Part shown: one piece after another, positions 4,910 to 51,827 of the stretch | How positions within the stretch are numbered: the stretch's first letter is position 1 | Layout: each line of letters begins with the position of its first letter | Source of the DNA: Candidatus Pacebacteria bacterium CG_4_9_14_0_2_um_filter_40_15 | GTDB lineage: Bacteria; Patescibacteriota; Microgenomatia; UBA1400; PJMF01 | Assembly: GCA_002788675.1 (NCBI GenBank) | Contig: PFRS01000005.1 | Location: forward strand, 314,635 to 378,634 | DNA: 64,000 nt | Reading direction: 5' to 3' | Notes under the pieces: model-generated | Databases searched by the model: none | What the model was told of the DNA's origin: nothing | The model's input: only the letters and a program-made list of their open reading frames with translations | Program-made: the position numbers and the translations under genes

Positions 4910-5085
4910 ATGTGTACTATAGTATACCGGATTACTGAGAAAAACCTGAATGAGCTTTTTTTGACTGATGTATAGGTGTGTTTTACACACAGATTGCAGT
5001 GGTAATTTAAAAGTAAAAGTGATATACTACGTTTCTGCCTAAAACCAGGCTTCGTCTTGGTTTTTTTAGTTCTAGGAAGACATTT

Positions 5086-8859: not shown

Positions 8860-9096
8860 TTACTTAACTGTATACCCCAACTTTGTTATCACGCCCTTAA
8901 GTTCATCTTCAGAAACCTTGGTCTTATCAAACTCAATCTCTGTTACTCCAGTCGCATAGCTAGTTGTAGCACTTGATACACCTGCAGTATCCTCAAGCTC
9001 TCCATCGATATTCATACTACAACTGGTGCAATGCATACCATCAACTTTCAACCTAATCTTTTCTCCACTTTGCTTTTTGTTTAAAAATGAAAACAT
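8860..9096 (-). CDS. copZ: copper chaperone CopZ (HMA domain)
   Basis: It carries the GMHCTSCS metal-binding motif (GMxCxxC) in a ferredoxin-like fold of about 70 aa. The start is set at MFSF. Confidence 0.75.
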   Translation of the reverse strand: MFSFLNKKQSGEKIRLKVDGMHCTSCSMNIDGELEDTAGVSSATTSYATGVTEIEFDKTKVSEDELKGVITKLGYTVK

Positions 9097-9107
9097 AGTT
9101 GCCTTTC

Positions 9108-10238
9108 TTATTTTACTTCCATTACTCCAGTATACATTCCCATTGAACAAGTAAAGGTAAATTTGCCTTTTGAAGTTGGTGTAAAAGTAAATGTCTGTGC
9201 ATCAGTGGCCTTAAGATTTGCAGAAATATTAAATTCTTTAAATATAAATGAAAGCGCACACGAATACGTTCCATTACTCTGCACTGTCAGTTCAACTGGA
9301 ACCCCTTGCTTTACTGTCACGTAATTTGGACTGTATCCCTGATTCACTGCGTTGATGGTAACCTTTTGCACTCCATTTACTACTTGTGCCATGCCACTTC
9401 CAGCTCCATTTGATTCTGCAAATCGGTCACTAGAAAAGAAATAGGTAACTGGGCGAACTATCTTGCTCAGCGTAATCGGTGCATCAGTAACAATCAGGAC
9501 CCCGTTCACAGAGTACAGCGCCATACCAATCAGAACAACAGAAGCAATCTTCGTAAATTTTTGATACCAACCTTCAGAGAGTTTTGCTGTAGCTACACCA
9601 ATTACAGCAAAAAGTGGAACGGTACCAAGCACAAAGGTACCTAAAATAAGTGCTCCACTGATTGGATTACCCGAGTTTATCGCAAGCACTTCCATTGCCT
9701 GAGTGACTCCACAAGGAATAAACACAGTGAGTAACCCGAGCAGCGCTGGGGCAAATAAGGCCTTGCTCTTACTAGAATTGCGAATATATCGCTGCAAAAA
9801 TTTAGGTGGCTGAAATGCAACATATCTAAAAATAGGATGGACATCAAGCAAATTCATTGCCGTCGCAAACATGAAAAATGCTGTGAAAATTTGGAAAAAT
9901 AACCGCACTTCTAAAGATAAAGTAATTGCGGATCCAAGCAGACCTAACATAAATCCTAAAATCACATGAGCCACAAATTTACTCAGTAGGAACATGCCCA
10001 CTGGCATCCAATCTAGCTCGTCGAATGAATCAAGACTAAATAGCGCCGATCGCTTTTGAAGAGCTTTTACATATGCAGCCTTCTTTTTTTCTTTTAGCTG
10101 TTTTTTGTCATTCACAATAGCTTCGTGCTCTTGATCCTTTTGGTTAGCAATTACACTTGCTAATAGTCCACCCTGCATTGCAGCACATGCGATTCCACCT
10201 GTAGTTAAACCAGTAATAAATATCAAAAATAAATTCAT
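9108..10238 (-). CDS. membrane protein with multi-TM permease-like domain fused to C-terminal cupredoxin-like domain (copper-resistance associated)
   Basis: About 6 to 8 TM helices with conserved Cys and Gly are followed by a C-terminal beta-rich domain (VKQGVPVELTVQSNGTYSCALSF...FTFTCSMGMYTGVMEV) that resembles cupredoxin_1. The gene lies between copA and copZ. Confidence 0.45.
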   Translation of the reverse strand: MNLFLIFITGLTTGGIACAAMQGGLLASVIANQKDQEHEAIVNDKKQLKEKKKAAYVKALQKRSALFSLDSFDELDWMPVGMFLLSKFVAHVILGFMLGLLGSAITLSLEVRLFFQIFTAFFMFATAMNLLDVHPIFRYVAFQPPKFLQRYIRNSSKSKALFAPALLGLLTVFIPCGVTQAMEVLAINSGNPISGALILGTFVLGTVPLFAVIGVATAKLSEGWYQKFTKIASVVLIGMALYSVNGVLIVTDAPITLSKIVRPVTYFFSSDRFAESNGAGSGMAQVVNGVQKVTINAVNQGYSPNYVTVKQGVPVELTVQSNGTYSCALSFIFKEFNISANLKATDAQTFTFTPTSKGKFTFTCSMGMYTGVMEVK

Positions 10239-10250
10239 AGAGACTGTTCC

Positions 10251-12497
10251 TTATACTAATCTTGTTCTTTTAAGTCTGAGTGCATTTGCCACCACACTTA
10301 CACTTGAAAATGCCATTGCTGCTCCAGCCAACATAGGATTAAGTACTACTCCAAAAATCGGATACAATGCCCCCATCGCAACTGGTATTAACACAATGTT
10401 ATATCCAAAGGCCCAAAATAAATTTTGTCGAATGTTACTCATCGTTGCTTTTGAAAGCTTAATAGACGTCGGGACTAAATTCACATCACTACGCAGCAAC
10501 GTGATGCCAGCAGACTCAATTGCCACATCGGTACCACCACCCATGGCGATGCCAACATCTGCAGTTGCCAAAGCAGGGGCATCATTTATGCCATCACCGA
10601 CCATAGCTACATATTCATATTCTGTTCTTAGGTTACGAATTGCTTCCTCTTTTTGATGGGGAAGTACTTCTGAAAGTACTTGTGATATCCCAGCTTGTTT
10701 TGCAATAGCTTGAGCTGTTTTTTCACTATCCCCCGTTATCATTACACTTGCTATACCCATCTCTGATAGTTCTAAAATCATAGCAGCTACATTTTCTTTA
10801 AGCGTATCTGCAATGCTAAATACTGCCGAGAGCTGCCCATCGATTGCCATGAAGACAACCGTATGTCCTTTTGCGGAATACTCAGCAAAGAAATCCTTTG
10901 CATCTTCGGAAACCGCAACCATATTTTCATGTAGATGTTTCATGTTTCCAATAAGAACTGAAGCCTTACCCACAAATGCTTCCACACCTTTCCCACTCAC
11001 ATCTTTAAATGCTGATATTTTCAATGCAGTTTTATTCTCCATTTTTTTAGCTGCATAATCTGCTAAGGCACTAGCCAAAGGATGGTGTGATTTTTCTTCA
11101 ACCCCGTGAAGGATACTCATAAGTTTTTTCTCTTCAGAATAGACTTTTTCAGCAACAACTATGGGTTTACCTTGGGTCAGTGTACCAGTCTTATCAAACA
11201 CTATGGCTTTAACTTTATTTGCAACCTCAAGAGCATTGGCATCTTTAATAAGAATGCCAAGTGAAGCACCTCTGCCCATCCCCACCATAAGTGATGTTGG
11301 CGTAGCCAAACCCAATGCACAAGGACAAGCAATAATGAGCACATTAATCATACTAACGAGTGCTCGAATAAATCTAGGCTCCGGCCCAACAACCAACCAA
11401 GTAACAAACGTTAGTACAGATAAGATGATAACAACAGGTACAAAATATGCAGCAATGACATCAACCAGTGCTTGAATTGGTGGACGTGATCCTTGTGCCT
11501 GCTTAACCAAGGTGATAATTGATGCCAACATGGTGTCACTCCCAACCTTTGTGGCCTGCATCTCTATACTGCCTGATTCATTTATGGTTGCACCAACAAC
11601 AGTGTCACCAATTTTCTTCGTAACTGGGAAGCTTTCACCCGTTATCATACTTTCATCTATAGAAGTTTCACCAGACATAACGACACCATCTACTGGCACT
11701 TTTTGGCCTGGTTTAACCAGAATAATATCACCCACAATAACCTCTGTAATTGCTGTTTCAATCCAAGTGCCACTTTGCTTCACGAGCGCAGTTTTGGGTT
11801 GTAATCCGAGTAACTTCTTAATTGCTGATGACGTTTGTGCCTTCGCCCTAATCTCTAAATATTTACCAAGTAAAATAAAGGAAATAATTGCGGCGGAAGC
11901 CTCAAAGTACACATGCGTTTCTATGCCACTGAGCACAAACCAATCGGAGAAAAGCGTCACAACAGTTGAGTAAGTAAATGCGACAAATGTTCCAAGAGTA
12001 ACAAGTGTATCCATGTTGGCTGTTTTGTTTTTTAGACCTGACCATGCACCCTTGAAGAAGCGTCTGCCTGCCCAGAATTGCACAATCGCAGACAAAAACA
12101 TGGCGAAGTATGGGTTATGTAGCTGAGAGGGTATAAATGGCATCATAAGACTCATGAGCACGATTGTGATACCAAGACTAACCAATAATTGTTGTTTTAA
12201 TTGCTTAAGTTCGATTGTGCGTTCTTTTTCGGCTAAATCACCTGCCGCATCATCATCCATATGTGCTGTATATCCTGCTTTTTTAACTGCCTCAGAAATT
12301 CTTTGTGTATTTATTTTTTCACCTGCAAATACTACCGTCGCTTGCTCATTTGCATAATTAACATTGGCGTCAGAAACTCCCGGTGTTTTTTTAAGTGAAC
12401 GTTGAATAAGGCTGGCACAACTTGCACAGTGCATTCCAGATACGTGAAATGACAGTGACTCTCCTTTTTGTGTGTTGTTTGGTTTACTTTTGGACAT
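10251..12497 (-). CDS. copA: copper-translocating P1B-type ATPase
   Basis: It has an N-terminal HMA motif (GMHCASCAS), the CPC motif in TM6 ([12 protein letters not shown]), the phosphorylation site FDKTGTLT, and the GDGINDAP hinge. Five antisense ORFs inside it are rejected. Confidence 0.9.
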
Positions 12498-12969
12498 ATT
12501 TTGAGGGGCCTTTCTTAAATGCAGTTAGACAACCACTGGCGCAAAAAAAGTAGTCATGGCCTTCATGTTCACACTGAAATGCAGCAGTCTTTGGTGATAC
12601 GCGCATTCCACAAACGGGATCCTGAACAATGGGGACAAGTTCTTTCATTTTATATTTCAACTCTTCAGCGAATGAGGTGTCATCCGAAGTATCAATTAAT
12701 AATTCTCTAAGCAAGTCACTGACTGCAATAATATTTGGGTGAGTCAAAGAGTAATACACCTGTTTTCCCTGTTTTTTGGTTTTAACCACACCCGCATCTC
12801 TAAGAACCATAAGGTGTTGACTAATATTTGCTTGAGGCAAATCTAACATCGTGTAAATGTCAGTAACAGGTAACTGCTGATCACGCAAAAGATGAATTAT
12901 TTCTAATCTGCGTGAATTTGAAAGCGCCTTAAGTAAGTCAGCTTGTTTTGTAAAAAGAATTTCATACAT
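12484..12969 (-). CDS. ArsR/SmtB-family metalloregulator with C-terminal TRASH/YHS metal-binding domain
   Basis: An N-terminal wHTH ([13 protein letters not shown]...[14 protein letters not shown]) is joined to a C-terminal DPVCGM...C...C YHS/TRASH cysteine motif. It sits upstream of copA with a 14-nt overlap, so it is the likely operon regulator. Confidence 0.7.
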
Positions 12970-44850: not shown

Positions 44851-45942
44851 TTACTCTAAGAAATCCTGTAACTTCTTACGTCTACTAGGATGTTTCAGCT
44901 TGCGTAGAGCCTTAGCCTCAATTTGACGAATACGCTCGCGTGTTACACCAAACTGTTTACCTACTTCTTCGAGTGTCATCATTTTGTTGCCGCTTAAGCC
45001 AAAGCGCATCTTAAGCACTTTTGCTTCACGGTCGCTCAGAGCCCCAAGGACTTCTTCAACATTTTCGCGCAACATCTGCATACTGGTTGCTTCGTACGGT
45101 GAAACTTGACCATCATCTGAGATGAAGTCGCCCAACACACTATCATCATCTCCATCACCCACTGGGGATTCAAGCGATGTCGTGTTTTGAGAAATCTTAA
45201 GAATTTCGCGAACTTTTTCTGGATCCATCTCCATGGCCTTACCAATTTCTTCTGGTGAAGGCTCACGGCCCAAATCTTGCATAAGTCGGCGAGAAGTTCG
45301 CATTAACTTATTGATGGTTTCAACCATATGAACAGGAATACGAATAGTACGAGCTTGGTCGGCAATTGAACGAGTAATAGCTTGGCGAATCCACCATGTT
45401 GCGTAAGTAGAAAATTTAAATCCTTTAGTCCAATCAAATTTTTCAACTGCACGAATTAAACCTTTATTACCTTCTTGAATTAAGTCGAGGAAAGTCATTC
45501 CACGGCCAATATATTTTTTTGCAATAGACACCACCAAACGAAGGTTAGCATCAATTAAATCTTGTTTTGCTTTTGGATCGCCGGCCTCAACCTTTTGAGC
45601 TAAACGTATTTCTTCTTCTCTATTAAGAAGCGGAATACGGCCAATCTCTTTGAGGTACATACGCACAGGATCTGCAACAGTTCTGTCTTTAAGTGTAGAA
45701 AGTGTAGCAAGTTCTTGGGTAAGATCATCGTCACCGGTTTCTTCTTTTTTCTCGGCAACAGACTCAAAAATGTCTGTTCCCATTTTGACGAGTTCATAAT
45801 AAAAATCATCAAGTTCTTCAAGGTATTCTTCTGGTTCAACAAAAGCTTGAAGAATATCATCTTGAGTAAGGTATCCTTGTTTCTTTGCAAGTGAGAGTAA
45901 CTTATCAATATCTTTCTGAATGGCTGCGGGAAGTTTAGGCAT
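44851..45942 (-). CDS. rpoD: RNA polymerase sigma factor RpoD (sigma-70)
   Basis: Region 2 reads [56 protein letters not shown], and region 4 reads [31 protein letters not shown]. The start is set at MPKLP. Confidence 0.9.
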
Positions 45943-46149
45943 AAGAATAAAAAAAGAGGGCTGGCAATTACCAGCAATCATCTACTACTTTCTGTTCTGT
46001 ATAATTATACACCCGAATGTCAAGTTATCAAGCGCTGTCTGGTGAGAAGGTGACGCAAGTATATGTCTCACTTTCACAACTCCACATTCTAAGGAACTTG
46101 TGTGTTCAATTTTGAATTATTTATCGTATGTATACATATTTATTCTTCC

Positions 46150-46770
46150 GCTACAGAAAACCCCAGGCTTTCAAGCCTGGGGATGAATGGCAGTTGAGGC
46201 GAAAGCCGAAACTGCTATCTTGTATACTTGATGCATGACTAGAAAATACTGGACGGGAGCTCATACAACACATCGGTTGAGATTTCATATAGTTCTTTTA
46301 CCAAAATACCGCAGGAGAGTGCTCAAAGGCAAAATAGCTACTAGAATAAAGCAATTGTTCTATCAGGCGTGCCAGATGAATAAGTGGTGGATAGATGAAA
46401 TAAATCTCCAGCCAGATCACCTACACATGTTAATCCAGATAAAACCAAGGGAATCAGTGTCAAGTGTGGTGCAGTTACTCAAGGGAGGGAGTAGTAAGGT
46501 GATCAGGGTAGAGTTTCCAGATTTGGAAGAATATTTATGGGGAGATAGTTTTTGGTCAGATGGCTATTTTGCCGAAAGTGTGGGAACAGTAAACGAAGAA
46601 ATAATTAAGCAGTATATTAAAAACCAACATGCAGCAAGTATTGAGGGCGATTAGCCCTCATGCATGAAGCTCCGGCTTTTAAGCCGGAGAGACTGTTCAC
46701 TTTATATGCATCTAACATACTCAATGAAGTGCTGGTACCATTTGCGCCAGGCATTCTGCCTGGCGCAAAC
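46150..46770 (+). mobile_element. IS200-type insertion sequence (IS200/IS605 family, tnpA only); extent approximate
   Basis: The Y1 HuH transposase gene is flanked by subterminal perfect hairpins. On the left is ccccaggc-tttcaa-gcctgggg at 46161..46182. On the right are gagggc-gatta-gccctc, ctccggc-ttttaa-gccggag at 46670..46689, and gcgccaggca-ttc-tgcctggcgc at 46744..46766. Confidence 0.6.
46235..46654 (+). CDS. tnpA: IS200/IS605-family Y1 transposase TnpA
   Basis: The HuH motif is HLHMLI, and a conserved N-terminal H is present (HRLRFHIVLLPKYRR). The catalytic Tyr is in WSDGYFAESVG. Confidence 0.85.
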   Translation: MTRKYWTGAHTTHRLRFHIVLLPKYRRRVLKGKIATRIKQLFYQACQMNKWWIDEINLQPDHLHMLIQIKPRESVSSVVQLLKGGSSKVIRVEFPDLEEYLWGDSFWSDGYFAESVGTVNEEIIKQYIKNQHAASIEGD

Positions 46771-46805: not shown

Positions 46806-48104
46806 CTACACTCGCCCTCGCAGAATAAGTGTATCAACCACACTCTTTACAGCCTTAAGATAGGTCGCCATTCGAAGTGAAACCTGTTTCAACTCTTGCA
46901 TATCCCAAGCATCTGTCATTGCTTGCTTCATCAAAGGCTCCAACTTACTCAGCACTTCTGCGTGTGACCAATAGTAGCCTTGAAGGTTTTGCACCCATTC
47001 GAAGTATGAAGTGGTTACGCCACCAGCATTTGCCAGCACATCAGGCACAACCAAGATACCTTTATTTTCAAGAACAATGTCAGCTTCAGGTGTTGTTGGA
47101 CCATTTGCCATTTCAATAACTACTTTTGCATTAATTGTCGAAGCATTCTCAAGCGTAATAGCATTCTCAAGCGCCGCTGGCACCAACACATCAACATCAA
47201 GAGCAAGTAATTCTTCTGCAGAAATAACTTGGCTCGAATCCTCTGTTAATGACCCAGTTCTCTTTTTTGTTGCAAGAACGTCACGTGGACTCAGACCAGT
47301 CGCATCATACAAAACCTGCTTAGAATCAGAGACAGCCACAACTTTAAAACCACGCTCTGCTGCATGCAATGCAAACCAATAGCCAACATTACCAAAACCT
47401 TGAATAGCTATGGTCACATCATTGGGTTTCTTCCAGCCCATTTTTTTACATAAGATTTCGAGCACATATACTCCGCCCAAACCAGTAGCTTCTTCGCGGC
47501 CCTGTGAGCCGCCCAGTTCTAGTGGTTTACCAGTGAAGGTTGCCAAAGGATTTTCTGAAAAAGTTCCCATTGTCTCTTGTTGATACTGCTCGTACTCATC
47601 AACCATCCAAGCCATAATTTGACCAGTGGTGTTTACATCAGGAGCTGGGACATCAACCCAAGGACCCACAAATGGAGCGACAAACCGTGCGTACGCTCGG
47701 CTGAGACGTTGCAGTTCGGCCATACTTAGGTCACGAGGATCAACAATTATGCCACCCTTACTTCCACCATAAGGAATACCAGTAACGGCAGATTTCCAAG
47801 TCATCCAAGTAGACAGTGCCATTACTTCATCTTTACTTACATTTGGGTGAAAACGGATACCACCTTTGTACGGACCTCGAGCATTATCATGCTGTGAACG
47901 GTACGCAGTAAATGACTTTTCTGTGCCATCATCCATGGTAATCTGGAGTTCTGTCTCGTGAACTTGATCAGGTTCACGAAGTTTATTAATGGCAGCATCA
48001 AACTGAACCTCTTTGTCTCCAACATACGAATCACGAAGCAGTGCAGCAACTTGTAACAGTTGTTCAACTGCATGTGCGTGCGCAGAACTTTGTTTTTTTT
48101 TCAT
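46806..48104 (-). CDS. gdhA: NAD(P)-specific glutamate dehydrogenase
   Basis: GGSKGGI carries the catalytic Lys, and the nucleotide-binding site is GFGNVG. The length is 432 aa. Confidence 0.9.
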   Translation of the reverse strand: MKKKQSSAHAHAVEQLLQVAALLRDSYVGDKEVQFDAAINKLREPDQVHETELQITMDDGTEKSFTAYRSQHDNARGPYKGGIRFHPNVSKDEVMALSTWMTWKSAVTGIPYGGSKGGIIVDPRDLSMAELQRLSRAYARFVAPFVGPWVDVPAPDVNTTGQIMAWMVDEYEQYQQETMGTFSENPLATFTGKPLELGGSQGREEATGLGGVYVLEILCKKMGWKKPNDVTIAIQGFGNVGYWFALHAAERGFKVVAVSDSKQVLYDATGLSPRDVLATKKRTGSLTEDSSQVISAEELLALDVDVLVPAALENAITLENASTINAKVVIEMANGPTTPEADIVLENKGILVVPDVLANAGGVTTSYFEWVQNLQGYYWSHAEVLSKLEPLMKQAMTDAWDMQELKQVSLRMATYLKAVKSVVDTLILRGRV

Positions 48105-48193: not shown

Positions 48194-49261
48194 TTAGGAT
48201 TCTTGTCGCTCAAGCCATCGTTCAGCGTCTAGCGCCGCTGCACAACCTTGACCAGCTGCAGTAATTGCTTGCTTATAGCGCACATCGACATTATCACCAG
48301 CTGCAAACACTCCTTCAACAGAAGTCATGCTTGGGTACTGAACCAATCCTTCAGACAAAGCAGCTTGAGCCTTGGTAACACCAACTTCTGTTGCACTCTG
48401 ACGAGTAACAACATAGCCATGACCATCAAGTTCAACTTGATCAACAAATACACTTGTTTGTGGTCTGTGCCCAATGGCGATAAACACACCATCTGCTGAC
48501 AATACCTTTTCTTCGCCATTCTCTTTAACACGAACCCCAGTCACTTTTTGGTCACCAATAATTTCTTCAAGCGTTGTATTCCACAGCACCGAAATCTTTT
48601 CATTTCCCAACACGCGTTCTTGCATAATCTTACTTGCTTTAAATGAATCGCGACGGTGAATAACGGTAACATGCTTTGAAAATTTGGCCAAAGCCAGTGC
48701 ATCTTCCATAGCACTATCACCACCACCAACTACATAGGTTTCTTTATCTCTAAAGAAAGCAGCATCGCACACAGCACAGTAGCTTACGCCTTTGGCTGAA
48801 AACTCAGCTTCACCAGTAACGCCAGGCTTGATGGGACTTGCTCCTGTTGAGATAATAATTGAGTTAGCTACATACTCAGGCTCAGATGCCTTAATACTTG
48901 CTGCTAATTCTTTTTGCTGTTCTGGAGTGTAGTCATTGAGTTTTTGAGGATCGGTGCCTTCTGGCAACGTGGTCCAAATTTTAAATGGACGATGTGACAA
49001 ATCAACTGCTGTCACATGCATATCTACGATAGACGTCCCAAATCGTTCAGCCTGAGTTCGAAACTGCATCATCATTTTCGGCCCCATGATTCCTTCTGGG
49101 AATCCTGGGAAATTCTCCACATCTGTAGTGAACATAAGTTGTCCACCAGATTGGTATCCCGCAAATACTGTTGTTTCTAACTGTGCCCGACTGGTATAGA
49201 TCGCTGCGGTGTACCCAGCAGGACCAGAACCAATGACGGCTACTTGAACTTTCTTTGACAC
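48194..49261 (-). CDS. trxB: thioredoxin-disulfide reductase
   Basis: The FAD site is VIGSGPAGYTAA, the redox-active CAVCD is present, and the NADPH site is GGGDSAMEDA. Confidence 0.9.
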   Translation of the reverse strand: MSKKVQVAVIGSGPAGYTAAIYTSRAQLETTVFAGYQSGGQLMFTTDVENFPGFPEGIMGPKMMMQFRTQAERFGTSIVDMHVTAVDLSHRPFKIWTTLPEGTDPQKLNDYTPEQQKELAASIKASEPEYVANSIIISTGASPIKPGVTGEAEFSAKGVSYCAVCDAAFFRDKETYVVGGGDSAMEDALALAKFSKHVTVIHRRDSFKASKIMQERVLGNEKISVLWNTTLEEIIGDQKVTGVRVKENGEEKVLSADGVFIAIGHRPQTSVFVDQVELDGHGYVVTRQSATEVGVTKAQAALSEGLVQYPSMTSVEGVFAAGDNVDVRYKQAITAAGQGCAAALDAERWLERQES

Positions 49262-49302: not shown

Positions 49303-49656
49303 TTATTCAAGTACTTTTTCAATCATATCGCGGTATCCCTGTTCTCCAGGAAAACCAACTTTTTGAGCCGCCAATTCGCCATCTTTAATGATAACTACTG
49401 TTGGAATACTCATAACACCAAAACTTGCTGGAACTTGATTGTTTTCGTCAACATTAACTTTAACGATATGAACTTTACCTTCGTACTCGCCAGCTAATTT
49501 ATCAACAATTGGAGCTGCCATTTGACATGGGCCACACCATTCAGCGTAAAAATCAACAAATACAGGCATACCTGCTTCTTTTGCGTCTTCTACATTTTTC
49601 TTAAAATCGGCATCTGTCCAGTGAGCTGCCTGTGCAGTTTTTTTATCGTCTGCCAT
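49303..49656 (-). CDS. trxA: thioredoxin
   Basis: The active site is WCGPC. The start is set at MADDKK. Confidence 0.85.
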   Translation of the reverse strand: MADDKKTAQAAHWTDADFKKNVEDAKEAGMPVFVDFYAEWCGPCQMAAPIVDKLAGEYEGKVHIVKVNVDENNQVPASFGVMSIPTVVIIKDGELAAQKVGFPGEQGYRDMIEKVLE

Positions 49657-49742
49657 ACGTCCTCCTTTGTGAGTACTTCGTACTACTATTACTTTATATC
49701 TAATACCTACTACTATACATGAGCGCAACTACTTAGGTTCCG

Positions 49743-49988
49743 CTATTCATACTTAAAAAGTTCTTTAAGCACTTGGTCTAAATCATCAGTTCTGGCTTCT
49801 TTTGAGCATTTACATGCTTCACCAGTGAGTAAATCACGGGCTGTGCGACCCAAAGAGCCGCGAACTGCAATAATTTGACGACAAATATCAATACAGGCAC
49901 GTTCTTCTTCGTACATTTTAACGATGCCTTCAATTTGGCCGCTGATGCGTTTAAGTTGTGCTAACTTTTTGTCTGTTTGCATACACAT
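49743..49988 (-). CDS. CsoR/RcnR/CstR-family (DUF156) metal/thiol-sensing transcriptional repressor
   Basis: LKRISGQIEGIVKMYEEERACIDI parallels the CsoR helix-1/helix-2 region with the sensing Cys. The C-terminus has a C-x-C pair and no His, which is a CstR-like persulfide/thiol-sensor arrangement. The start is chosen at the internal Met so that the palindrome lies upstream. Confidence 0.65.
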   Translation of the reverse strand: MCMQTDKKLAQLKRISGQIEGIVKMYEEERACIDICRQIIAVRGSLGRTARDLLTGEACKCSKEARTDDLDQVLKELFKYE

Positions 49989-50010
49989 AATATACCCCCG
50001 GGGGGTATAT
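49989..50010. promoter_or_regulatory. GC-core palindrome ATATACCCCC-GGGGGGTATAT, CsoR-type operator candidate
   Basis: A near-perfect 22-bp inverted repeat sits immediately upstream of the CsoR-family gene. CsoR operators are known to be TACCC...GGGTA-type GC-tract palindromes. Confidence 0.45.
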
Positions 50011-50045
50011 GGGTCAAGCACTAAAAATTGATCGATAAAAAGAAT

Positions 50046-51827
50046 TTATATGTTTTTTCGCAGCAACACAATTTCTTTGAGGAGCTGGTTTTGCTTCTCT
50101 TCTTCAGCTTCGGTTTTGTCTGGTTTATCATCGAGTAGAGCTAGTTTATAGGTAATTTGATTTATCCGCTCAGTGATACTGAGTTTCTGCAGTTTTGCCA
50201 GCGCTGTTTTCCATTCTTCGTCGCTTCCGTCTGAGGTTGCCGATGAGAATGAACGATACTCTGCCATAAGATCAAAAATCGTTTGCTTAAGATCTTCTGG
50301 TAAATGCATTGAAAAGGTCTTCACCGTTACGGTTCCTTCCTGAGAAGCTAATGAACGAATAATTTGATTGAGCCCTGCAGTCTCAAAATTAAACTCAGCC
50401 AACTCTTGTGCGCGATCAACCAGTCTCCGTTCATCACCGCTAAACAATAAATACACACAGTATTGTTCTTGCTTTTCTTTTGGTGAAAGTTTTTTGGCCT
50501 CAATCTTTTGTGCTTCAGTTTTTTCCTTCTTTTCTTCTGGAAGCTTCTTATGTTTCTTATATGACTGAATGTCATCCTTGACTGTCTGCTGCTGCACACC
50601 TAATTTTTCTGAAACTGATTTTATGTAGTGCTCAAGCTCGACTGCATGAGAAACACTCGAGAGAACCGGTGCCAACTCTTCCATAATTTTTCGTTTGCCA
50701 GATGGAGTAGTGGCATCAAACTGAATAAATGCAGCAGAAATTAAAAAGTCATAGGCTGTTACCGAATGTTTAACAGTTTCACGCCACAATTTAGGATCTT
50801 TGCGAATTAATTCGTCAGGATCTTTTCCTTCTGGCACCTGAAGAACACGAAGCTCAACTTTTGTTGACTTCAACACATCGATCGATTTTTTGGTTGCTTT
50901 CACACCAGCTTCATCACTATCGAGCGCTAACAAAACTGTGTCCGAAACTCGAGCTAACAGCTTTGCATGATCTTCAGTAAGAGCTGAACCTTTAATAGCT
51001 ACAATATTATTCACATGAGCCTGTTGTGAGGTAACTACATCGAACTCACCTTCAACAACAATCACGCTACCTGCTTTACGAATATGTTGGAACAACTCAC
51101 TAAAACCAAACAGCATCTTACTCTTGTGATACAGCAACGTTTCTGGCGAGTTAATATACTTTGCATCTTTAGCGGTGCCTTCCAGGACTCTACCGGAAAA
51201 GCCAACGACCCGACCTCGGCTATCTCGCAGAGGGAACATAACTCGGCCACGGAACCGATCGTAGTAGCGGCCATTTTTCCCTTTAAGTATTAAACCCGCT
51301 TGCTCGAGCAGATCGAGTGAGTACTTCTTTTTCTTATGCAGAAATGTCATCAGACCATCCCAGCCAGGCAGTGAGTACCCTAATTGAAATAACTTAATGG
51401 ATTCATTATTTACGTGGCGATTTTTGAGATACTCGCGGGCAACTTCACCCGTTTTATGTTCAGTAAGAAGATAGTGATAGTACTCTTTTGCTAGGTCAAG
51501 AACCTCAAGTAATTGCTCTTGCAGTTCATCATCACTTGACTTTTTATAGGACTCTAGAGTAATATTAGCCTTATCTGCCAAATGTTGAAGGGCTTCAGCA
51601 AAGCTCATCCCTTCATATTTTTCAAGAAAAGTGAACGCATCACCGCTCTCACCACAGCCAAAACACTTGTACCGCTGGAGGCGTTCATCGACAAAAAAAG
51701 ACGGACTTTTCTCGCCATGAAATGGACAGAGACCCCTAAAATAGGTGCCGCTTCTCTGGATCGAGATTCGCGACCCAATGACATCAACGATGTCGCTGGC
51801 TTCTTTTACTTCTTGGATTTGTGACAT
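50046..51827 (-). CDS. dnaG: DNA primase
   Basis: There is a CHC2 zinc finger (CPFHGEKSPSFFV...CFGCG), an RNA polymerase domain, and a Toprim region (VVVEGEFD...LDSDEAG). Confidence 0.9.
   Translation of the reverse strand: MSQIQEVKEASDIVDVIGSRISIQRSGTYFRGLCPFHGEKSPSFFVDERLQRYKCFGCGESGDAFTFLEKYEGMSFAEALQHLADKANITLESYKKSSDDELQEQLLEVLDLAKEYYHYLLTEHKTGEVAREYLKNRHVNNESIKLFQLGYSLPGWDGLMTFLHKKKKYSLDLLEQAGLILKGKNGRYYDRFRGRVMFPLRDSRGRVVGFSGRVLEGTAKDAKYINSPETLLYHKSKMLFGFSELFQHIRKAGSVIVVEGEFDVVTSQQAHVNNIVAIKGSALTEDHAKLLARVSDTVLLALDSDEAGVKATKKSIDVLKSTKVELRVLQVPEGKDPDELIRKDPKLWRETVKHSVTAYDFLISAAFIQFDATTPSGKRKIMEELAPVLSSVSHAVELEHYIKSVSEKLGVQQQTVKDDIQSYKKHKKLPEEKKEKTEAQKIEAKKLSPKEKQEQYCVYLLFSGDERRLVDRAQELAEFNFETAGLNQIIRSLASQEGTVTVKTFSMHLPEDLKQTIFDLMAEYRSFSSATSDGSDEEWKTALAKLQKLSITERINQITYKLALLDDKPDKTEAEEEKQNQLLKEIVLLRKNI

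Follow-up and report, generated by a model that had tools for sequence, protein, structure and literature searches.

A CsoR-family protein with two conserved cysteines as the probable thiol-switch repressor of a thioredoxin operon in Patescibacteria

The 64-kb stretch of DNA analyzed here (the window) derives from a Candidatus Pacebacteria genome, of the ultra-small Patescibacteria (CPR), and carries a small regulator gene of the CsoR family, followed on the same strand by trxA and trxB, the genes for a thioredoxin and a thioredoxin-disulfide reductase. The regulator has no histidine, carries conserved cysteines at two of the sensing positions of the family, and is preceded by a perfect palindrome that lies within a predicted promoter. 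We consider it probable that this protein is a thiol-switch repressor of its own operon, composed of the regulator gene, trxA and trxB, and perhaps extending into the downstream gene gdh; it would then be a redox switch for the main antioxidant system of these minimal cells. The combination of regulator, operator and thioredoxin genes recurs in some 70 species of Patescibacteria.

The regulator and its thioredoxin genes

A preliminary description of this DNA had proposed a repressor of the CsoR (DUF156) family ahead of trxA and trxB, and both parts of that proposal hold. The regulator matches PF02583, the 'metal-sensitive transcriptional repressor' family of CsoR and RcnR (E 2.8e-18, 66.5 bits against a cut-off of 22.8), as well as ten solved members of the family. 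The two downstream products pass their NCBIfam equivalog thresholds (TIGR01068, 110.4 bits against 96.8; TIGR01292, 350.3 bits against 343.45, the latter in two stretches), and the active-site motifs WCGPC and CAVC are seen in the translations of TrxA and TrxB, respectively.

The order of these genes is widely conserved. A word-based protein search returned 16 close relatives, the contigs of which keep the order dnaG-regulator-trxA-trxB down to 64% identity. A scan of species-representative genomes with the closer alignment of 13 sequences as query yielded 80 loci (a broad alignment of 40 sequences gave no conserved stretch that was usable for the locus search). Regulator, trxA and trxB are found on one strand and in the same order in every one of the approximately 70 Patescibacteria loci that their contig covers completely, at identities as low as about 45%, and the three-gene block is intact in those loci that lack dnaG or gdh. 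Many of the related MAGs are titled 'uncultured Pseudomonadales' in GenBank, but isolate names (e.g. HK-STAS-PATE) and gene content point to Patescibacteria. The distant members P0031, P0043, P0049, P0167 and P0171 (the three that were directly compared are 38-40% identical to the window protein) adjoin trxA directly wherever the contig is long enough, and trxB and gdh follow where the contig continues. Since these relatives keep the regulator next to trxA in spite of unrelated upstream genes (DsbD_2/SfLAP, DUF192), gene order indicates that the link between regulator and thioredoxin is older than the local synteny.

A consensus scan of the minus strand identified the hexamers TTGACC and TATATT at a distance of 17 nt, with 10 of 12 positions matching. 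The palindrome, with 5 C and 6 G on the plus strand, is made up of two perfect 10-bp arms and a single base at the center. It occupies the spacer between the hexamers, and the -10 begins within its right arm; with transcription starting at 49982 it would cover about -28 to -8. The perfect GC palindrome had been noted before, although at 49989..50010, coordinates that are corrected in Table 1, and the CsoR-type architecture ascribed to it then is confirmed. More specifically, the predicted site, ATA-TAC-CCCCGGGGG-GTA-TAT, fits the type-2 operator of CsoR and CstR proteins, with TAC-N9-GTA, G/C tracts, flanking TA repeats and a location inside the regulator's own promoter. The sites of Streptomyces lividans CsoR obey the TAC-N9-GTA rule, e.g. 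TATACCCCCTAGGGGTAA (PMC3902906), and the cst operator of Streptococcus mitis reads ATATACCCTTATGGGGTATAT (PMC8643695); the window site fits both forms.

Operator searches covered the window and about 8 kb around each relative. The palindrome is unique in the window, where none is expected (100 shuffles), and a relaxed search of the window for ATACCCC-N3-GGGGTAT with up to 3 mismatches gave no second credible site. Each of 63 related loci has a single exact copy of the core, invariably immediately ahead of the regulator gene, and the flanks of the related loci hold no second operator. The further copies of the palindrome that the preliminary description had suggested looking for did not turn up within this range; the other half of its proposed refutation, a firm grouping of the protein with the Cu-sensing CsoRs, did not materialize in a rough neighbor-joining tree with five reference sequences.

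Among 74 distinct homologous upstream regions the -35 hexamer is TTGACA or TTGACT in 57, the distance between -35 and -10 is 16-18 nt in 68, and the -10 reads TATATT, TATAAT, TATGCT or TATATA, while the 17-bp core ATACCCC-N3-GGGGTAT holds a fixed place between the two hexamers. Because the flanks do not align, we read this conservation of promoter and operator as a phylogenetic footprint. Several promoters of the distant members contain a TACT-C6/7-AGTA site instead, which we take to resemble the type-1 sites of RcnR-like members. Such a site, or one of the form GTACCC-N3-GGGGGTAT, is present in the distant x-C-E-C members L093 (~800-850), L094 (~220-268), L096 (~4950-5000) and L092 (~230-275), in the same promoter position and with the start codon a few bases past the -10. 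From these sites it seems that the operator type has changed within the clade and that the link to trx has been retained.

The form of the operator supports its designation as a CsoR-family operator and carries no information on the signal, because the same promoter-embedded site mostly precedes csoR-copZA operons in metagenomes: around 50 of the 82 oriented sites recovered in a metagenome scan lie before classical csoR-copZ/copA operons, and only one lies at a trx-type locus. Hence the operator sequence alone is no argument against copper. The scan revealed no additional regulon targets of the organism itself. It did return a number of sites elsewhere. A similar site, TTGACATGTCAATACCCCCC-N-GGGGTAT, is found on the minus strand of L158 (about 9090-9117) and L116 (134-161), preceding a dnaG homologue by some 250 nt; judging by the translations of its open reading frames, the contig looks GC-rich. 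In L156 (338-363, minus strand), a 1.6-kb contig of high GC content by the same measure on which no CsoR-family gene is visible, a promoter-embedded site directly precedes a trxB whose product is 58% identical to the window TrxB. Finally, L106 (609-1846) and L101 (about 833-1100) encode a 78-aa CsoR-family protein with two cysteines, of the type x-C-S-C and 26% identical to the window protein; its gene is divergent from that of a TrxB-like flavoprotein of 304 aa (CASC), with ATACCCC-N3-GGGGTAT between them. This may be an independent pairing of a CsoR-family protein with thioredoxin reductase outside the Patescibacteria.

The start of the regulator gene had been placed at 50021. The corresponding open reading frame (49743..50021, 92 aa from a GTG) is real and maximal; it reads through the operator and the -35 hexamer, and its start was therefore revised. 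Two ATG codons follow the -10: the one at 49988 abuts the hexamer and is used in the public gene model of NCBI (81 aa, MCMQ...), and the one at 49982, 6 nt further, gives a protein that starts with MQTDKK, at the point where its homologues start. Both the alignment of homologues and the promoter geometry favor the latter, which most likely is the true start of a gene encoding 79 aa. Several relatives in the databases are likewise over-extended through the operator and have spurious 'IPPGGI' N-termini. The A of ATG 49982 is the seventh base after TATATT (6 nt in between), and the seventh base after the -10 is the usual position of the transcription start. In addition, a Shine-Dalgarno sequence is lacking before the regulator, whereas trxA has one (AAGGAGGA). 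Together, the missing Shine-Dalgarno sequence and the location of the ATG suggest that the mRNA is probably leaderless, with the start codon as its probable first base. In the 74 upstream regions the start codon is most often located 6-7 nt past the -10, and none of them has a Shine-Dalgarno-like sequence before the regulator.

Residue fingerprint, proposed mechanism and inducer

The sensing residues were assigned by alignment to the solved proteins GtCsoR, MtCsoR, SpCstR and InrS, which gave C30 for position X, E55 for Y and C59 for Z. C30, at the start of helix 2, aligns with the X cysteine of CsoR, CstR and InrS. Position Y holds the Cu-ligand histidine in CsoR and InrS, an asparagine in SpCstR and a glutamate in the regulator. 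The protein has four cysteines (C30, C34, C57, C59). In 73 aligned relatives C30 and C59 are both present without exception (73/73), E55 is present in 65 (Ala in 7), C34 is present in 3 and C57 in a minority; of 72 proteins counted, 61 have exactly two cysteines and 43 have no histidine. The preliminary description had seen a Cys...Cys-x-Cys arrangement without histidine as the sensing site. The cysteines and the lack of histidine are indeed there, whereas Cys-x-Cys does not survive as a conserved sensing feature: because C57 varies and C30 and C59 are invariant, the alignment marks it as particular to this species and x-C-E-C as the conserved fingerprint.

This fingerprint differs from those of the established sensor classes. 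For Cu(I)-sensing CsoRs it is x-C-H-C, and Glu55 stands where GtCsoR, MtCsoR and InrS have histidine; moreover, C30 is preceded by Ala, Ser or Thr, and not by the Tyr of Cu-sensing CsoRs. The histidines at W and Y of RcnR, InrS and DmeR have no counterpart in a protein without histidine (RcnR equivalog 34.6 bits against a cut-off of 138). FrmR combines Pro2 with the X cysteine and a histidine at Y (P-C-H-x); residue 2 is Gln in the regulator and varies in the relatives (S, K, Q), and the FrmR equivalog scores 26.7 bits against 133. In fact none of the NCBIfam equivalogs is reached, the best match being RicR. The general pattern of CstR, x-C-x-C without a histidine at Y, is present. The 'wedge' asparagine at Y, which defines the Firmicute CstR groups as x-C-N-C (PMC11672702), is not, its place being taken by Glu55.

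Sequence similarity places the regulator roughly at equal distance from the solved family members, with 41% identity to GtCsoR, 38% to MtCsoR, 37.5% to InrS and 35% to SpCstR. A profile search of 1.84 billion representatives returned 4302 family matches, the nearest ~55 of which carry the Glu fingerprint; the lower-ranked ones are classical CsoRs (RYCID...H...HC). In the rough neighbor-joining tree, which has no support values, the regulator belongs to a clade without histidines, and all five reference sequences lie outside it. When 150 representatives and five PDB sequences were clustered by single linkage, no bit-score threshold separated the subfamilies, the proteins being too short. The alphaproteobacterial loci L082-L085, L087, L088, L090 and L091 were rejected as members of the x-C-E-C subfamily, as they encode RYC...H...H metal sensors; most of these adjoin candidate genes for metal transporters, CDF-like or permease-like as judged from the N-termini.

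From these data we infer a cycle of repression, cross-linking and reset by thioredoxin. The reduced tetramer would bind the TAC-N9-GTA palindrome, and as this lies in the spacer and -10 of a sigma-70-type promoter the bound protein would exclude RNA polymerase. Upon oxidation C30 would be joined to C59' of the partner subunit, through a disulfide or, if the oxidant is a persulfide, through a tri- or tetrasulfide, and the cross-linked protein would be released from the DNA. A leaderless mRNA would then yield more regulator, thioredoxin and thioredoxin reductase. The induced thioredoxin system would reduce the disulfides or persulfides of the cell, and probably the repressor too, which would close a homeostatic loop.

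As for the inducer, we tentatively propose general disulfide or peroxide stress, because the putative target genes form a general disulfide reductase system and are not genes for the detoxification of sulfide. In characterized CstRs, cysteines of the C30/C59 type become cross-linked by persulfides, by tetrathionate and, in vitro, by H2O2, after which the protein dissociates from its DNA (PMC8643695; PMC11672702). No H2O2-specific sensor of the CsoR family has been characterized according to a 2024 review in Chem Rev, which prevents a side-by-side comparison (PMC11672702). The x-C-E-C clade might fill this gap. A more far-reaching proposal, which we regard as doubtful, is that it is the founding CsoR-family sensor of general thiol-disulfide or peroxide stress, as opposed to metals or persulfides, and the principal, perhaps sole, redox regulator of many Patescibacteria. 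The operon, leaderless and resetting itself, would then tie thioredoxin and its reductase to possible NADPH genes (gdh, malic enzyme).

Persulfide as the specific inducer appears unlikely, though less so than the alternatives treated below. The regulator would then be a sensor of the CstR type, whose C30 and C59' become joined through sulfane sulfur (RSSH or polysulfide), and TrxA and TrxB would mainly serve as a persulfide reductase. The characterized CstRs share the x-C-x-C fingerprint and a cst-like operator with the regulator, candidate persulfide sensors constitute the largest non-metal group of the CsoR family (PMC11672702), and thioredoxin-like proteins of Staphylococcus aureus are reported to reduce protein persulfides (PMC6196236). 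However, a gene for a sulfurtransferase, persulfide dioxygenase, SQR or CoA-persulfide reductase was found alongside the regulator in none of the examined loci, the wedge residue Asn55 of the x-C-N-C CstRs is replaced by Glu, and the protein, only 35% identical to SpCstR, lies outside the SpCstR group in the rough tree. The chemistry does not discriminate, as CstRs react with H2O2 in vitro too (PMC11672702). Thus, from the CstR-like thiol sensor of thioredoxin that the preliminary description had envisaged, the two-cysteine pattern and the trx link remain, whereas the residue at the wedge, the regulon and the tree argue against an identification as CstR. The remaining probability goes to another inducer or none.

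Extent of the regulated unit and the copper alternative

Control of trxA and trxB by the regulator presupposes that the three genes are transcribed together. The 86-nt spacer between regulator and trxA contains no predicted promoter-like or terminator-like site on the minus strand. In relatives the spacer measures 9-243 nt (median 47) and in 21 of 71 loci it is at most 25 nt long. Weak and unconserved promoter-like matches lie within or close to the spacer in 17 of 73 relatives, as opposed to matches upstream of the regulator in 65 of 73. Given the short spacers and the lack of a conserved internal promoter and of a terminator, co-transcription of regulator, trxA and trxB is the parsimonious interpretation of these sequences. 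A constitutive promoter of trxA itself, which had been put forward earlier as grounds for abandoning the proposed regulon, is thus neither predicted in the window nor conserved in relatives. The spacers of the window and of L010, L018, L027, L029, L033, L038, L039, L041, L045, L067 and L072 share some further features: in many of them a short hairpin, rich in GC and lacking a U-run, immediately precedes the Shine-Dalgarno sequence of trxA, and they hold repeated AAGTA/AGTAG words (in the window AGTACgaaGTACT). These could be related to RNA processing, RNA stability or attenuation.

We deem it improbable that the regulator acts on its own gene or on distant targets alone, with trxA and trxB constitutively expressed from a promoter of their own and the adjacency of the genes merely an inherited synteny. 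The window spacer of 86 nt is AT-rich, weak promoter-like matches do occur in relatives, and the synteny of the block includes dnaG and gdh too. Against this, spacers of 9-25 nt are too short for a promoter, the link to trx persists beside unrelated upstream genes, and the flanks of the related loci hold no second operator.

The unit may extend further downstream. In 39 of 66 loci gdh starts within 250 nt of trxB on the same strand (e.g. L010, 3419-4612), and no terminator was predicted in the trxB-gdh interval of the window. In 11 loci a malic-enzyme gene directly follows trxB; if the contig extends further, gdh comes after it. The two dehydrogenases could supply NADPH to thioredoxin reductase; if so, the locus would be a redox module with its own supply of reductant.

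Copper is the signal of the best-known members of the family, and the possibility that the regulator is an ordinary CsoR for Cu(I) or another metal that merely adjoins trx genes has to be considered, small as we judge it to be. The PDB entry that it matches best is a Cu-sensing CsoR (4m1p, E 9e-10), RicR is its best NCBIfam match, the metagenome sites of the same operator type mostly precede csoR-copZA, and relatives are labeled 'copper-sensing' in the sources. However, the histidine at Y, an allosterically essential ligand for Cu(I) sensing according to published work, is replaced by Glu, and Tyr is missing before the X cysteine; zero histidines rule out sites of the RcnR and InrS type, and every NCBIfam score falls well short of its cut-off (44 bits against 175). 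Neither copZ nor copA adjoins the window locus or any of the ~70 related trx-type loci, so that the pairing indeed differs from the usual one of CsoR with copZA, as had been described. In the window copA is located 37 kb from the regulator and is overlapped by the gene of a regulator with an ArsR-type helix-turn-helix (HTH) and a YHS domain, in agreement with the earlier assignment of the copper genes to an ArsR-type regulator. Copper sensing by the regulator is therefore unlikely, considering the residues at and next to the X and Y positions, the missing cop neighbors and the separate ArsR-YHS/copA locus.

That the palindrome is an RNA hairpin or the terminator of dnaG, the stop codon of which lies 36 nt upstream, and not a protein-binding site, is highly improbable and was rejected: a 9-bp GC-rich stem could form, but it is not followed by a U-run and its fold is unexceptional (z -1.3), loci without an upstream dnaG keep the site at a constant distance from the -35 TTGACA, and the site matches known operators of the CsoR family.

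A number of considerations weigh against the proposed thiol switch. Elsewhere, operators of the identical type belong mostly to copper operons, and CsoR-family proteins with two cysteines can still bind Cu(I). The 86-nt spacer could hide an unrecognized promoter, and as much of the lineage keeps dnaG, regulator, trxA, trxB and gdh in synteny, their adjacency is possibly in part a matter of inheritance, although the link between regulator and trx survives where dnaG or gdh has been lost. The searches for further operators span 64 kb of a genome of perhaps about 1.19 Mb, the length of the longest contig with this protein, and the stated flanks of the relatives, and repression, inducer, transcription start and co-transcription are all deduced from sequence. 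Nevertheless, a redox-responsive repressor of its own thioredoxin operon remains, in our opinion, the probable function of the protein.

The features are listed in Table 1. TrxB has 355 aa, and the two-stretch match to TIGR01292 implies that, compared with typical thioredoxin reductases, it has an insertion of ~30 residues at about residue 90-120. Between gdh and the gene of an rpoD-like sigma factor (45981..44851) lies a gene for a Y1 transposase of the IS200/IS605 type (46235-46654, plus strand), which is not present at the corresponding position in the relatives L007 and L008.

Table 1. Positions in the window of the regulator locus and of the copper locus
Feature	Coordinates	Strand	Basis or remark
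dnaG	51827..50046	-	upstream neighbor of the regulator
-35 hexamer TTGACC of the putative operon promoter	50012..50017	-	consensus scan; same place in homologous upstream regions
Operator, 21-bp palindrome ATATACCCCC-G-GGGGGTATAT, core ATA-TAC-N9-GTA-TAT	49990..50010	none	predicted site; fills the promoter spacer, overlaps the -10
-10 hexamer TATATT (right arm of the palindrome plus one base)	49989..49994	-	consensus scan
Regulator gene (most likely start), 79-aa CsoR-family protein, x-C30-E55-C59	49743..49982	-	PF02583 match, homologue alignment
Regulator-trxA spacer, 86 nt, ending in the trxA Shine-Dalgarno sequence AAGGAGGA	49657..49742	-	
trxA, thioredoxin, WCGPC active site	49303..49656	-	PF00085, E 2.7e-26; TIGR01068
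trxB, thioredoxin-disulfide reductase, CAVC active site	48194..49261	-	PF07992, E 1.3e-44; TIGR01292
gdh, Glu/Leu/Phe/Val-type dehydrogenase, tentative fourth gene of the unit	46806..48104	-	PF00208 and PF02812
ArsR-HTH+YHS regulator	12969..12484	-	overlaps copA
CopA-type P1B ATPase	12497..10251	-	
DsbD_2-cupredoxin fusion	10238..9108	-	
HMA-domain protein	9150..8860	-	

Significance and comparison with known systems

In the searchable literature no connection of CsoR-family (DUF156) proteins with a thioredoxin operon, or with Patescibacteria, is described, and thioredoxin is never mentioned in the main text of the family-wide sequence similarity network paper on CsoR. The annotations of the relatives in the source databases are generic ('hypothetical', 'FrmR family', 'copper-sensing'). 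Already known are the fold, the operator and the probable cysteine chemistry; the fingerprint, the regulon and the host lineage are new.

Inducer specificity is an open problem in a family of which sensors for Cu, Ni/Co, formaldehyde and persulfide are known. The x-C-E-C clade is a natural partner for comparison with CstR and CsoR, as it combines the same two cysteines and a near-identical operator with a Glu at the wedge and a thioredoxin regulon, and the question of specificity can be tested directly with a protein of 80 residues and a duplex of 21 bp. For the Patescibacteria, which have tiny genomes and few regulatory circuits that are understood, this is one of the rare circuits that can be read from sequence, and about 70 species strictly conserve it. 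The circuit hints at a way in which their main disulfide-reducing system may be adjusted, and the layout of promoter, operator and leaderless start, together with the possible NADPH-supplying dehydrogenases, points to a compact control unit.

Control of thioredoxin genes by thiol-based regulators is known for proteins of other folds, such as RsrA-SigR (trxBA of Streptomyces), Spx (trxA and trxB of Bacillus) and OxyR (trxC and grxA of Escherichia coli). These are an anti-sigma factor, an RNA polymerase-binding protein and a LysR-type activator, respectively, and their folds and mechanisms are unrelated to the CsoR family. The proposed logic is alike: a cysteine switch senses the oxidation of thiols, induces the thioredoxin system and is reset by thioredoxin. 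The difference would be that the regulator described here acts by occlusion of the promoter by a CsoR-family tetramer.

The Cu(I)-sensing CsoRs of Mycobacterium tuberculosis, Bacillus subtilis, S. lividans and Geobacillus (PDB 2HH7, 4ADZ, 4M1P) share the PF02583 fold with the regulator, GtCsoR being the closest in identity, as well as the TAC-N9-GTA operator and the Q36 and (Q/R)LKR motifs for DNA contact, and by analogy the regulator would likewise head an autoregulated operon. They differ in having the histidine at Y, the Tyr before the X cysteine and the copZ/copA partners, whereas the copper genes of the window are accompanied by an ArsR-YHS regulator.

The CstRs of S. aureus, Enterococcus faecalis and Streptococcus pneumoniae/S. 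mitis (PDB 7MQ1-3) belong to the same fold family and come close in several respects. They have two conserved cysteines at the same aligned positions (C30 and C59 in SpCstR numbering too) and no histidine at Y, and their operator, ATATACCC-TTAT-GGGGTATAT, is near-identical in form to the window site ATATACCCCC-G-GGGGGTATAT. By analogy, intersubunit cross-linking that releases the DNA may be expected for the regulator as well. The two differ at the wedge (x-C-E-C versus x-C-N-C) and in descent, the regulator forming part of a separate clade with respect to the five reference PDB sequences. CstR regulons comprise genes for sulfurtransferase, persulfide dioxygenase, SQR and CoA-persulfide reductase, whereas that of the regulator would consist of trxA-trxB(-gdh), with malic enzyme in some loci, in a patescibacterial host and under a promoter that appears to be leaderless.

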